From a virus (lineage: Duplodnaviria > Caudoviricetes): a DNA stretch of 64,000 bases. Position numbers and translations under genes: made by a program. The stretch spans positions 96,001-160,000 of the IMG/VR virus record IMGVR_UViG_3300044620_001883, one strand, 5' to 3'. Each line of letters opens with the position of its first letter. The stretch's first letter is position 1. Under the pieces are notes generated by a model, which ran no database searches, was not told the origin of the DNA, and saw only the letters and a program-made list of their open reading frames with translations. Of this stretch, positions 34,260 through 64,000 are shown piece after piece.

Positions 34260-34294
34260 TCCAGCCCCTTCGGGGGTTGGATTTCGTTAGCTAT
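34260..34294 (+). terminator. intrinsic-type terminator hairpin (cUUCGg) followed by TTTCGTTAGCTAT
   Basis: tccagcccc-TTCG-ggggttgga stem 34260-34281, then tttcgttagctat 34282-34294; ends the 34-kb gene chain. Confidence 0.75.
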
Positions 34295-34306
34295 CACTCG
34301 TCGAGG

Positions 34307-34335
34307 TTGCAGGGGCGGGGGACTGTGGGTAGGTT
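34307..34335 (+). promoter_or_regulatory. sigma70-like promoter, leaderless geometry
   Basis: TTGCAG-N17-TAGGTT, 8 nt before ATG 34344, no SD. Confidence 0.55.
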
Positions 34336-34343
34336 TTGGGCAT

Positions 34344-52191: not shown

Positions 52192-53142
52192 ATGACGGAA
52201 CAAACAACGAGGTATAGACTGCTGACCTCCGTCAGAACAGCGGTCAGAGAGTACGTGGACACCAACCCGCAGTACGCGGCAGGTGGAACCTTCCACGTGA
52301 TCGGCGTCCTGTCTGTGAAGCAGGACGCTTCAGGAAACTGGAACGTGGTTAATGACAACCACGTCTCGGTTGTGGCACAAGATGGGTTTCCAGACCCAGA
52401 GGCTAGGAAGATACCTGGCCTACCACAGCACGCTGTCGTGGTGGAGTATTTGCTCCGCACGACAGGTAACCCGGTGACCGACCTGGTCGAACTGGTCTGG
52501 GAACCTGATAGCGACGCGTTGGTCAGTGCGCTACAGCGTCTGGCCATGCGGCAGGATGGCCTGCAGCGGATGCAGCTCTTCGAAACCGAAGAGCAGGACA
52601 TCAACCGCCGGTCCTTGGGTCAGGCGCGGCGGCAGCGTGAGGAGGCGCAGCGCGCGGCGGACAGGGCCGCTTGGGCGCAGGCAATGCTGGAGGCCGAGGC
52701 CCAGCGCAACAAGGCCAAGGCAGAAGCCAAGGCCTTGAAGCGCACCAAGGCCTTGGCTAAAGCTAAGGCCAAGAAGGAGGCCAAGAAGGAGGCCAAGAAG
52801 GCCAAGAAGGTCAGGAAGCAGACTGCGGTTCGTCCACCCGTGACGGATGTGTCAGTGGCCCAGGCTAAACGCGCACGCCAGCACTACGAAGCCGAGCATG
52901 GACTCGGTAGCTTCGAGCGCATCCACATCGAGGAGCAGCTCAGGTTGGAACGCGCGGCGTGGTGCCTGCCTGAGGTTCCCCTGGCACCTAGCAACTGCAA
53001 GGTGATGCGGAACTGTTGCGGTAGCATCCCCCATGGGATGTCGCGTTACCAGGTGCCCAAGTACAACCTCGAGTTCTACGAGGGGCGGTCATACCGCGAG
53101 ACCCCCAGCTACTGCTGGAGGCAGGGCCGCACCGCCCGCTAG
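52192..53142 (+). CDS. hypothetical protein with K/A-rich coiled-coil segment
   Basis: Likely ATG 52192; KAKAEAKALKRTKALAKAKAKKEAKKEAKKAKK. Confidence 0.65.
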   Translation: MTEQTTRYRLLTSVRTAVREYVDTNPQYAAGGTFHVIGVLSVKQDASGNWNVVNDNHVSVVAQDGFPDPEARKIPGLPQHAVVVEYLLRTTGNPVTDLVELVWEPDSDALVSALQRLAMRQDGLQRMQLFETEEQDINRRSLGQARRQREEAQRAADRAAWAQAMLEAEAQRNKAKAEAKALKRTKALAKAKAKKEAKKEAKKAKKVRKQTAVRPPVTDVSVAQAKRARQHYEAEHGLGSFERIHIEEQLRLERAAWCLPEVPLAPSNCKVMRNCCGSIPHGMSRYQVPKYNLEFYEGRSYRETPSYCWRQGRTAR

Positions 53143-53247
53143 GCAGAAACACCCGCGACGAAGTGCTTGGCACTCCGTGGGACTATTTCGGGAGAATCCC
53201 TCCCACCGACGCTCTCCCGGTACATCAGGAGGGCAACCCATAAACAC

Positions 53248-53562
53248 ATGTATATGCACAAAACATTGGTCAGCGTAGGGACCCTTACGGCGTCCCTACT
53301 GACACTGGGCTTCCTGATCGGCGCGGTCAGGTTGCTCCTCATCTGGTGGGCCGTTGCCGCCAGCATTGGCCACCGTGCCGCCGCAATCCTGTTGGTCCCT
53401 GTGGGACTGATGGTTCTCGTTGGCGGCGCGATCGCGCAAATCGCGAAGCTCTGTTGGGAAGAGCTTCGCGACATCAACTGCGGCCAGGAGGCCGCGGAGC
53501 AGCGGGAGCTGCAAAACAGCAGGGATGACATTGAGTTGGCCCAAGGGAAGGAGGAGCTATGA
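53248..53562 (+). CDS. membrane protein (2-3 TM)
   Basis: Hydrophobic helices; start moved to ATG 53248. Confidence 0.55.
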   Translation: MYMHKTLVSVGTLTASLLTLGFLIGAVRLLLIWWAVAASIGHRAAAILLVPVGLMVLVGGAIAQIAKLCWEELRDINCGQEAAEQRELQNSRDDIELAQGKEEL

Positions 53563-54130: not shown

Positions 54131-54175
54131 CCACCCGTCGTCCTTCGGGGCGGCGGGTGGCTTTTCGTTAGCTAT
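54131..54175 (+). terminator. intrinsic-type terminator hairpin (cUUCGg) followed by TTTCGTTAGCTAT
   Basis: ccacccgtcgtcc-TTCG-gggcggcgggtgg (54131-54160), then c-ttttcgttagctat; same tail as at 34282. Confidence 0.8.
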
Positions 54176-54222
54176 GACGTCGCTTGACCTGTACAGGCTT
54201 TCGTGGTCAAATGTGTGTTGTC

Positions 54223-61536: not shown

Positions 61537-61817
61537 ACGCAGATAACACAGATCGCATCTTGCAAGACCTCAAGCAAACCATCGACAAGTTACCACCGAC
61601 CGCAATTGGCGTTGTGCTGGAAACCTGGCGCGTGCGAATTGACGATATTCGAAAACAACTAAAGTTTACAGGCAGATCACTAACAGACGTAACGTGCCCA
61701 GCTGCGCGTGAGCTGATGACGCTGGAAATGGCCGTACGTCAAATCGAGGCGGCCTGTGCTGTTGAGCGCGGGGATGGACTCGATGCCATCCGTATCCTTT
61801 TGAACCCCACCCCATGA
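61533..61817 (+). CDS. hypothetical protein
   Basis: GTGA/ATGA-coupled ORF. Confidence 0.5.
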   Translation: MNADNTDRILQDLKQTIDKLPPTAIGVVLETWRVRIDDIRKQLKFTGRSLTDVTCPAARELMTLEMAVRQIEAACAVERGDGLDAIRILLNPTP

Positions 61818-62443
61818 GCACCACCCGTCGCGAGAAAGCCCGACGACTCAAGAACGCAGAGGGTGTGATCATCTGCAGCTGTGGCTGTGGTCAGATTCCA
61901 AAGCCACCACGTCAGACTTGGTTCAGCCAGGCCTGCGTGGATGGTTGGCGGGAGAAGAATGATCCGGGGTACATCCGCCAGCAGATGCTGAAGCGCGACA
62001 AGGGGATCTGCGCTCTGTGTGGTGTCGACTGCGTCAAGATCCAGAAGACAGTACAGCGGCTGCAACACCTGCTGCGCTGCAGCCCTCCAGATCACGGTCA
62101 GCGCAAGTTCCGGGAAGGTCACAGTTACAACGGGCAGTTTCTGCGCAGCAAGTACGACAGGTGCCTGGCAATCTGGCAACGGTGGCGGCACAAGCGTATT
62201 ACAGCTGCCAGGAACCGACTGGAGCGTATCAGGGCTCAGGGTTGGAACCTGGACCGGAAGACACAATGGGATGCGGATCACATCCTACCCGTCATCGAGG
62301 GTGGGGGTCTGTGTGGTCTTGTCTCGATGCAGACACTGTGCGTACCTTGTCATAAGGAGAAAACCAAACAGCATGCAAAAGACCGGGCGCAAAGAAGGCG
62401 AGAGAGTAGTGGGTGTTTACCAGATCAAGTGCCTGGTAACTAG
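61814..62443 (+). CDS. HNH endonuclease-domain protein
   Basis: CSCGCG...WFSQAC, RDKGICALCG, WDADHILPVIEGGG...QTLCVPCHKEKT. Confidence 0.88.
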   Translation: MSTTRREKARRLKNAEGVIICSCGCGQIPKPPRQTWFSQACVDGWREKNDPGYIRQQMLKRDKGICALCGVDCVKIQKTVQRLQHLLRCSPPDHGQRKFREGHSYNGQFLRSKYDRCLAIWQRWRHKRITAARNRLERIRAQGWNLDRKTQWDADHILPVIEGGGLCGLVSMQTLCVPCHKEKTKQHAKDRAQRRRESSGCLPDQVPGN

Positions 62444-63182
62444 CCATGTCTATGTGGGCAGCTCTGTGCACTGCCTGCGGCGGTTTAAGTATCACAAGAC
62501 GCAGCTCCGAGGCGGTACGCACACCAACAGACACCTACAAGCGGCGTGGTGTAAGTACGGCGAAGCGCAGTTTGAGTTCATGATTATTAGACAGCTCACG
62601 GCTCCTTTGGGACCTGAGGTGTTGCTAACCTGTGAACGAGCCCTCTGTGTGAAGCTTAAAGCCCTTGATCCGTGCCACGGTTACAACCAACAGCAACCCG
62701 GTGCGGTGTACTGCCGTAGCACCGCTGAAGAGACCAAGCGCAAAATAGGCGACGCCAACCGAGGTAAGAAGAGAACACCAGAACAGGTTAAGCGCGCGCG
62801 TGATGCATTTTTACTGGCTACCGCGGGCAGGCCAGGTCCGAATAAAGGACGCAAGTTTGGACCCGATGTGCGACAGAAGATACGTCAAGCCCGTCTAGGC
62901 CGTCCGTCCTACACACGCAGTGCGGCGACGCTGCAAAAGCAGTCGTTAGTTTTGAAGAGCTTTTACACAACACCCAAGGGGCAGATTCTACGCGCCGCGC
63001 GCGGGAGGCCAGCGGAGCCGTGCACCAACTGTAGCTGTATCGTTAAGACACGCCGACGCGGTTTATGCGGAGCATGTAACGAGTACAAGAGGCGCACAGG
63101 GAACGCTCGACCTCCTGGAGGTTTTCCACAGGGTGGAGGCAGGCATGGGCGAAAAACCCTGGCAAAGCCGCACGCTTTGTAA
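62373..63182 (+). mobile_element. free-standing GIY-YIG homing endonuclease with NUMOD3 repeats and C-terminal Zn finger
   Basis: ATG 62373 with AAGGAG upstream; GVYQI...YVGSS..CLRRF..H, E, GYN; EETKRKIGDANRGKK and GRKFGPDVRQKI; CTNC..GLCGAC. Confidence 0.88.
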
Positions 63183-63285
63183 CCCCTGCCACAAAAAGGT
63201 CACCAAGGAACTAGCAGCCCGGCGAGCTGAACACCGCAGGCAGGAGAAAAAGCAGTTGCAAACCCTGACCGTTTCGCCATCATGA
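63169..63285 (+). pseudogene. displaced original 3' end of the HNH gene
   Basis: Out-of-frame RTLCNPCHKKVTKELAARRAEHRRQEKKQLQTLTVSPS* parallels QTLCVPCHKEKTKQHAKDRA in the HNH gene. Confidence 0.75.
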
Positions 63286-63290
63286 CTGTG

Positions 63291-63421
63291 CCGCGTGTCG
63301 CAACCGGTTTCCCCAGAGAAGAGATTCTGAAATAGCGGATTCGTCCTGCAACATCAGATCTTACCATCAGACCCCTTCTACAGGTCTACAGGTAATCTGG
63401 GAGACCGGCCTCGACACGCGG
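63291..63421 (+). ncRNA. candidate novel 131-nt three-way-junction structured RNA
   Basis: P1 10 bp perfect (63291-300/63412-421), P2 13 bp (63304-317/63396-408), P3 with gga-UUCG-ucc cap, P4/P5 ttacc/ggtaa plus agacc/ggtct. Confidence 0.62.
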
Positions 63422-63439
63422 CTCTTTGCGTACATGGCG

Positions 63440-63468
63440 TTGACGTCCAGCCAGTGACCTCGTAATGT
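63440..63468 (+). promoter_or_regulatory. sigma70-like promoter, leaderless geometry
   Basis: TTGACG-N17-TAATGT, 7 nt before ATG 63476. Confidence 0.6.
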
Positions 63469-63475
63469 CCAGATC

Positions 63476-63838
63476 ATGGACACATCCAAGTACCGCCCCC
63501 TTGCCTATCTGCTGGGCTCCAAGACAACTTATTCTGCCGCCGACGCTGTAGGCAGTCCGGCGAATCGGAACATGTACCGCCACCACACCTTCCAGCGCAT
63601 TGTGAAGGATGAAGGCGGCGGCAACCCTGCCGTTAAGATCCAGGCGCGGATCATCCCCGTCGAGGACGCTGTGGATGCCGCGGAGTGGTCCACCATTGCC
63701 ACACTCAACAACTCCACACCCATTGCCTTCTTCGGTCACACGCTCTTGCCGGCTGTCCGGGCTGTACGTGATGACGGCAGCACTGTGGAAATCAAGGTCT
63801 TGGTGTTCAGTGGCAATGACCGTGACGATGAAGGCTGA
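63476..63838 (+). CDS. beta-rich hypothetical (possibly structural) protein
   Basis: 120-aa ORF with alternating beta-strand pattern. Confidence 0.6.
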   Translation: MDTSKYRPLAYLLGSKTTYSAADAVGSPANRNMYRHHTFQRIVKDEGGGNPAVKIQARIIPVEDAVDAAEWSTIATLNNSTPIAFFGHTLLPAVRAVRDDGSTVEIKVLVFSGNDRDDEG

Positions 63839-63843
63839 TCCCT

Positions 63844-64000
63844 ATGCGCGTCAAAGCCATCCAGTATGCGGTCAATTCGGTGCTACCTCCAGAGCTGCGC
63901 GACTATCAACGCCCTCTGGACGGTAAAGGGATCGAGCGTCTGATGCACCAGGTGGCGGTAAGCTACCCGGACAAATATGCGGAGGTGCTCCGTCACATCG
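63844..64000 (+). CDS. rpoC: start of RNA polymerase beta' second (C-terminal) half, truncated by window edge
   Basis: MRVKAIQYAVNSVLPPELRDYQRPLDGKGIERLMHQVAVSYPDKYAEVLRHI aligns by eye with bacterial beta' TTVGRAILWMIVP...NQALGKKAISKMLNTCY, the segment after where 42829-45960 stops. Confidence 0.6.
   Translation, partial: MRVKAIQYAVNSVLPPELRDYQRPLDGKGIERLMHQVAVSYPDKYAEVLRHI

Follow-up and report, generated by a model that had tools for sequence, protein, structure and literature searches.

A conserved three-way-junction RNA fold between a homing-endonuclease slot and RNA polymerase genes of lake jumbo phages, possibly a branched intrinsic terminator

The window, i.e. the whole stretch of DNA analysed in this work (64,000 nucleotides), corresponds to bases 96001-160000 of a 200,255-bp virus record from IMG/VR, which is estimated to be 98% complete, and nearly every gene in it lies on the + strand. 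The sequencing runs that contain this stretch are lake-water metagenomes; none of them is recorded as RNA, and the four DNA runs that were examined yielded no new variant of the element described below. This element lies close to the 3' end of the window, where two endonuclease genes are followed by a transcription unit that leads into one half of an RNA polymerase subunit:

61814 onward, + strand: HNH endonuclease gene, upstream of the element
within 62019-63182: GIY-YIG endonuclease gene, upstream of the element
63133-63285, + strand: 50-aa piece weakly similar to HNH proteins, the original but now stranded 3' end of the HNH gene
63256-63283, + strand: weak and uncertain promoter-like site TTGCAA-16-CATCAT, with its predicted start at G63290, the first base of helix P1 of the element
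63290-63422, + strand: the element, 133 nt, a long stem capped by a three-way junction
63440-63468, + strand: promoter TTGACG-17-TAATGT; its -10 box lies 7 nt upstream of the ATG (63476) of the 120-aa gene
63476-63838, + strand: gene for a 120-aa protein, downstream of the element
63844 onward: C-terminal half of the RNA polymerase beta' subunit (beta'-C), downstream of the element, carrying a LAGLIDADG intein in the window

The HNH gene is interrupted by the GIY-YIG gene, which is inserted at about 62318-63186. In the related phage L004, the segments corresponding to 61813-62317 and 63187-63981 of the window are contiguous, about 30 nt stand in place of about 870 nt of the window, and the HNH gene is whole (207 aa). 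Therefore, the supposed HNH remnant represents the HNH gene's own 3' end, which was cut off when the GIY-YIG gene inserted. The element begins 5 nt past the HNH stop codon in the window and 4-14 nt past it in all four phages known to carry the element, while the distance from its 3' end to the -35 box of the downstream promoter is 17 nt in the window and 17-22 nt across the carriers. In all four it occupies the 3' end of a co-directional unit, with the neighbouring genes all on the + strand. The sequence-only reading had placed a structured RNA between the HNH remnant and the promoter of the unit comprising the 120-aa gene and beta'-C, and this position is confirmed.

The promoter downstream of the element is older than the endonuclease next to it. 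Of the 13 relatives compared (the window, L004, L007, L011, L013, L015, L018, L020, L021, L023, L027, L030 and L032), 12 have a site of the form TTGAC(G/C)-17-TAnnnT in front of the orthologous gene, followed by the ATG 7-8 nt past the -10 box; in L032, a similar site is located further upstream. The promoter is kept even where it falls inside an upstream ORF, and it is also present in relatives without any HNH gene. Such conservation across the relatives, even within an upstream reading frame, indicates that the promoter is ancestral. No Shine-Dalgarno sequence is evident for the 120-aa gene, and its mRNA is probably leaderless.

On the other side, what lies between the HNH gene and the promoter varies among the relatives. 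This slot holds an ORF of 92 aa in L018, L020 and L024 (L018:4606-4884, L020:4177-4455), an ORF of 99-102 aa together with a canonical terminator in L021 and L022 (L021:1409-1717), and nothing in L007, L011 and L030; neither ORF has a PHROG hit. This slot looks like an insertion hot spot. We considered and rejected the idea that the element is the remnant of an ORF, as the ORFs of 92 and 102 aa have no relationship to one another or to the element. We also rejected the idea that the element travels with the HNH gene, as L062 carries a 47%-identical HNH gene in a different phage context and has no such element. The downstream gene also varies: the Hint/LAGLIDADG intein of beta'-C is present in the window (L002:2845-5835) and in L023 (L023:5199-8189), where the protein has 996 aa, and it is missing from L004 (L004:6369-8219), L018, L020, L021 and L027, where beta'-C has 616-617 aa, so that its presence differs even inside each subclade of the phages that bear the element.

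Direct searches for relatives of the element gave little. A blastn search of the phage GenBank collection found none; scans of IMG/VR with two P1/P2 patterns and one arm A pattern returned no match, a pattern combining the tail and the promoter returned 20 matches (about the number expected by chance, by our estimate), none with the fold, and a pattern of the arm type found in L023 returned eight, all unrelated. Therefore the relatives were located via the neighbouring proteins and their contigs were compared; further locus searches with the beta'-C protein and with the family of the 120-aa protein added only L024, which is of the 92-aa-ORF type and lacks the element. L004, together with L005 and L006, carries the element (L004:5816-5947), and its 120-aa protein is 81% identical to that of the window. 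L023 and the near-identical trio L027, L028 and L029 contain a structure of 144-145 nt in the same slot. The four distinct carriers known to date (the window, L004, L023 and L027) thus fall into two subclades, and they derive from lake metagenomes.

A maximum-likelihood tree was calculated from a concatenation of the 120-aa protein and residues 1-300 of beta'-C. It unites the four carriers in a single clade (support 100/98), within which the window groups with L004 (97/95) and L023 with L027 (100/100). Since the carriers form a single clade, the versions of the element in the two subclades are regarded as orthologous, even though BLAST cannot align them. A covariance model built from the window and L004 recovers the L023 structure at its exact ends, but with 11 bits and E about 3, which is within the noise; hence the homology between the subclades is based on synteny, the tree and the common architecture, and not on the model. 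As judged from the phylogeny, the element has been inherited vertically within one clade of lake jumbo phages.

The element is composed of two stacked helices, P1 and P2, topped by a junction from which two arms emerge, and it is followed by a short U-rich tail:

63290-63300, + strand: 5' strand of P1, 11 nt, its first five bases GCCGC invariant in all four sequences
63304-63317, + strand: 5' strand of P2, which has 13 pairs and one bulged C and is preceded by a 3x3 internal loop
63322-63361, + strand: arm A, with an outer stem, an A-rich 4x4 internal loop, an inner stem and a UUCG cap (63340-63343)
63362-63394, + strand: arm B, with an outer stem of 4-5 bp, a 3x3 loop, an inner stem of 5 bp and a 9-nt loop, CCUUCUACA (63374-63382)
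63396-63408, + strand: 3' strand of P2
63412-63422, + strand: 3' strand of P1, ending in the invariant clamp GCGG(C/U)
63423-63431, + strand: U-rich tail TCTTTGCGT, directly 3' of P1, the proposed site of transcript release

All helices put forward in the sequence-only reading for positions 63291-63421 are present both in the minimum free energy (MFE) fold and in the centroid fold, and P1 is in fact one pair longer. The MFE for these positions is -59.1 kcal/mol (z -7.13), a value reached by none of 200 dinucleotide shuffles, and the extra pair G63290-C63422, which extends P1 to 11 bp, brings the MFE of 63290-63422 to -62.5 kcal/mol. However, the - strand folds about equally well (z -6.65), so the energy alone cannot assign the strand, and as other stretches of the same genome also reach z about -6, the z-score of the element alone is unexceptional here. 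A sliding MFE scan of the genome revealed stretches of 0.3-1.1 kb that fold far better than their GC content predicts, namely at window positions 52290-53450 (148.3-149.45 kb of the genome) and at 11.6-12.5, 51.4-52.1 and 69.4-71.2 kb of the genome. The part at 52290-52520 (-108 kcal/mol, z -6.0) lies inside a TTG-started ORF of 333 aa without a PHROG hit, and it may represent coding DNA rich in hairpins or a large structured RNA.

The comparison of orthologs is more informative than the folding energy. Between the window and L004, ten columns differ and none of the differences is disruptive to the fold: one C-G pair of P2 has become U-A, with loss of the bulged C, two changes produce G-U pairs (G-C to G-U in arm A and A-U to G-U in arm B), and five of the differing columns are unpaired (four substitutions and one indel). 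Between L023 and L027, there are two compensatory pairs, three one-sided changes that preserve pairing, eleven unpaired columns, and no change that breaks the consensus. The two within-clade comparisons together comprise three compensatory pairs, five one-sided changes and no disruptive change, where disruption is counted against the RNAalifold consensus, which omits pairs broken in one sequence (for example, the G-to-C change in column 18 unpairs a base that is paired in L023's own fold). All five one-sided changes in helices yield G-U pairs on the + strand and would yield A-C mismatches on the - strand. They pair only on the + strand, which fixes the strand as + and counts against a DNA cruciform; the earlier assignment to the + strand is thus borne out by the relatives and not by the energy of the fold.

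Between the subclades, the test had to be limited to the helices that MAFFT aligned unambiguously, i.e. P1, the base of P2 and the outer stem of arm A, which is alignable with arm A of L023 and L027. In these helices, 97.5% of the cells of the four-sequence alignment pair, compared to 24-40% when the partners are slid, and six pairs change on both sides, giving a covariation score that none of 500 shuffles reached. P1 alone has standard pairs at all 11 positions in all four sequences, with both sides changed in four of them. In the distal part of P2 and in both inner stems, the positions are kept and the sequences are almost wholly different between the subclades. The length of the rod formed by P1 and P2 is likewise maintained (11+13 bp in the subclade of the window and 12+12 bp in that of L023, 24 bp in each), and both subclades have an A-rich internal loop in arm A, while the single-stranded segments of the junction differ (about 3-4/0/1-2 nt versus 2/5/6 nt).

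Conservation extends beyond the helices. The element is 93.2% identical between the window and L004, and the spacer plus promoter 92.5%, compared to 47-51% at the four-fold degenerate sites of the flanking genes; 38 of the 43 unpaired columns are identical where about half would be expected (binomial P about 1e-7, by our own arithmetic). Between L023 and L027, the four-fold sites are 72-73% identical, the paired columns about 91% and the unpaired columns about 81%. The conservation and the covariation together indicate that the fold is more than a product of chance, and identity of 93% set against about 50% at four-fold sites indicates that the loops are under selection too. Taken as comparative evidence, these data show the element to be an RNA fold of the + strand under purifying selection.

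A search of the whole window against Rfam at the gathering thresholds, and of the element and its L023 ortholog at E <= 10, returned nothing relevant, as the sequence-only reading had anticipated in recognizing no known family, and ARAGORN found no tRNA or tmRNA. We file the element, which belongs to no described Rfam family, as an intrinsic-terminator-type module of a 3' end with a conserved branched body. Its general outline is reminiscent of the packaging RNA (pRNA) of phi29 (RF00044), which is also phage-encoded, about 120 nt long and built as a bulged rod with paired ends, a three-way junction and two stem-loops. However, the element has no Rfam match, comes from a 200-kb jumbo phage rather than from a phi29-like podovirus, and, unlike the pRNA, resides in a 3' UTR beside RNA polymerase genes. 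In a search for complementarity of at least 4 nt between the arm loops, at most three consecutive pairs were found (UUCG with CCUUCUACA, and CUUUCUAAA with GAACA), and neither the Rfam search nor the arm loops support the suggested packaging RNA, taken as one of the phi29 type. The suggested decoy for RNA polymerase or sigma factor, akin to 6S RNA, fares no better, as the fold is branched and is not a rod with a central bubble resembling an open promoter, and there is no Rfam match to 6S RNA. None of the tests speaks for the functions that the sequence-only reading named. An omega RNA of the HEARO/IscB type was discarded for want of an Rfam match and because the neighbour is an HNH homing endonuclease of 207-209 aa. 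A group I intron was discarded because no Rfam intron matches positions 62000-64000 at E <= 10 and because the genes on either side are complete, separate genes in the relatives, whether these carry the endonuclease or not.

We propose that the element serves as an insulator and a branched intrinsic terminator, closing the endonuclease transcription unit and perhaps leaving a stable 3' end of the RNA; we hold this reading about as likely to be right as wrong. The sequence-only reading had dismissed a terminator for lack of a U-tract. However, the bases directly 3' of P1 are TCTTTGCGT in the window, and the sister subclade has TTCTTTG or TTATTTG there; at the RNA level, the invariant GCCGC/GCGG clamp of P1 is followed by UCUUUG in the window and L004, by UUCUUUG in L023 and by UUAUUUG in L027. 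The tail of the window, with four T in 8 nt, falls short of the five that a simple terminator scan requires, and its four U in 6 nt are interrupted. The ordinary terminators of the same genome have similarly short tails, e.g. TTTCGTT, CTTTGG..., TTTGTTCGTAC and TTTCGTTAGC, and at least two of its ordinary hairpin terminators are followed within a few bases by a TTG -35 box:

window 34260-34343: terminator-promoter cassette of the same genome
window 54131-54222: terminator-promoter cassette of the same genome

Like the element, these cassettes consist of a GC-rich stem with an immediate short U-rich tail at the end of a co-directional gene; they and the element are positioned 4-22 nt upstream of the TTG -35 box, and their tails are alike (TTTG/CG...GTA.C.AT). 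In L021 and L022, the very slot of the element contains the canonical terminator mentioned above, a 12-bp stem followed by CTTTTCTG that ends 4 nt before the same promoter. From the GC clamp with the UCUUUG tail, the terminator in the same slot of L021 and L022 and the tails typical of this genome, we infer that termination is the best-supported function of the element. On the other hand, relatives such as L018, L007 and L011 have no terminator before the same promoter, which counts against this reading.

The element differs in shape from a simple short-loop hairpin. Above P1 and P2 sits a three-way junction with two arms, and where ordinary intrinsic terminators have a loop of 3-8 nt, the stem here encloses 109 nt, which are themselves conserved and covarying. 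A literature search turned up no earlier example of an intrinsic terminator with branches, and we know of no characterized one with a three-way junction of 109 nt as its "loop". During transcription, P2 and the three-way junction would fold first; as the 3' strands emerge, P2 and then the GC-clamped P1 would zip up, P1 having to cross only the 3x3 loop, with the folded arms keeping its two strands close together. The working hairpin would be a coaxial stem of about 24 bp abutting the UCUUUG tail, from which the transcript would be released as by an intrinsic terminator. Termination at this point would limit the endonuclease transcripts and would keep read-through away from the downstream promoter, whose mRNA is probably leaderless, and the folded arms would leave a compact, exonuclease-resistant RNA end. 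The conservation of the unpaired bases, far above the neutral level in the subclade of the window, is more than a plain terminator needs, and the conserved loops suggest that the RNA end may additionally bind some specific partner.

This arrangement has a parallel in phage T4, where mobE, a free-standing HNH gene, has an intrinsic terminator and a downstream promoter restores expression of nrdB; phages without mobE also lack its terminator (PMC2790892, PMC2988022). In both cases, an HNH gene precedes an essential gene, and a terminator linked to the endonuclease is followed by a promoter. The T4 terminator is a simple hairpin of 9 bp located within the 5' portion of mobE, and the promoter that follows is a middle promoter for nrdB (PMC2790892, PMC2988022), whereas the element is branched and follows the stop codon, and the promoter here predates the endonuclease.

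Alternatively, the element could function by itself as a stable non-coding RNA, about 135-140 nt long and with its two ends paired. Such an RNA would be transcribed from a weak promoter of its own or released by cleavage from the 3' UTR of the endonuclease message; its conserved loops would act on a protein or RNA partner, and P1 with the tail would merely set its end. We consider this alternative unlikely, although several observations speak for it. The loops and junctions are conserved to the same degree as the stems, and paired 5' and 3' ends are typical of stable RNAs. Arm B carries the 9-nt loop CCUUCUACA in the window, L004 has CCUUCUAAA at this position, and in L023 and L027 it is arm A that ends in such a loop, CUUUCUAAA (L023:4678-4686). 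The consensus C(C/U)UUCUA(A/C)A is thus common to the two subclades, even though the surrounding stems are unrelated in sequence; by our rough estimate, a match at eight of nine positions would arise by chance with P below 1e-3. Moreover, the promoter-like site TTGCAA-16-CATCAT would place the transcription start precisely on the first base of P1, and L004 keeps both of its hexamers with a single change (TTGCAG) while 10 of the 16 spacer bases differ. However, this site matches the consensus at only 8 of 12 positions, stays below the threshold of the promoter scan and has no counterpart in L023 and L027. The complement of the 9-nt loop does not occur on the + strand anywhere in the genome, and the loop has changed arms between the subclades; the different junction lengths argue against one precise three-dimensional fold, and only four sequences are known. 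Inspection by eye led us to reject a pseudoknot between the 9-nt loop and the AGAAG junction, as it is broken in L004. At its most far-reaching, this alternative would mean a new class of stable phage RNA, with a weak promoter of its own, a built-in terminator and selected loops, that would be produced beside the phage RNA polymerase genes and act in trans on a protein or RNA partner during infection, but we regard this as doubtful.

The same rod could instead be a processing or stability element, in which the host RNase III would cut the P1-P2 duplex of about 24 bp, part the endonuclease message from the downstream RNA and set its half-life, as in the intergenic sites of T7 or in lambda sib. 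Those sites are also intergenic and have about two turns of duplex with an internal loop, downstream of a gene whose expression may have to be held down, and the element matches them in its position and in the conserved length of its rod, about two helical turns with an internal loop in between, which provides the coaxial duplex of at least about 20 bp. Nevertheless, the resemblance is one of shape only, and it leaves the invariant GC clamp and the U-rich tail unexplained, while the downstream gene has a promoter of its own. The T7 sites are simple hairpins rather than three-way junctions, and T7 sites and lambda sib alike are unbranched hairpins with mapped cleavage, unlike the element with the three-way junction at its top. 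Accordingly, we rate processing by RNase III as rather improbable.

A conditional terminator, controlled by a protein or in the manner of a riboswitch, in which a ligand or a phage protein bound to the three-way junction would stabilize or loosen P1 and thereby tune the read-through into the RNA polymerase genes, would account for a closing helix that doubles as a terminator stem, for the conserved unpaired positions and for the A-rich internal loop of arm A in both subclades. We consider it very unlikely, since no alternative antiterminator pairing is seen, the geometry of the junction differs between the subclades, no known aptamer class matches, and the downstream genes have their own conserved promoter.

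A feature of the DNA (a cruciform, a site of replication or recombination, or a miniature inverted-repeat mobile element) would fit the imperfect terminal inverted repeat of 24 nt and the variable slot, but is extremely improbable, given that the element occurs once in the 200-kb genome (by BLAST and by the covariance model, which also disposes of a repeat of the MITE or REP type) and nowhere else in IMG/VR by pattern, that the five one-sided G-U changes would be mismatches in a DNA hairpin of either strand, and that inheritance is vertical within one clade.

For now, the weight of these findings is moderate, as the family is narrow and comprises four distinct sequences from lake metagenomes. 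If the element indeed terminates transcription, it would be a natural intrinsic terminator with a conserved three-way junction on its stem, which would widen the range of targets for terminator-finding programs, and it would be a compact insulator part supplied by an uncultured phage. If its loops bind a partner, it would be among the few structured non-coding RNAs of jumbo phages, located beside the phage's own RNA polymerase genes. Either way, it shows how a homing-endonuclease slot may be kept from disturbing an essential, probably leaderless operon.
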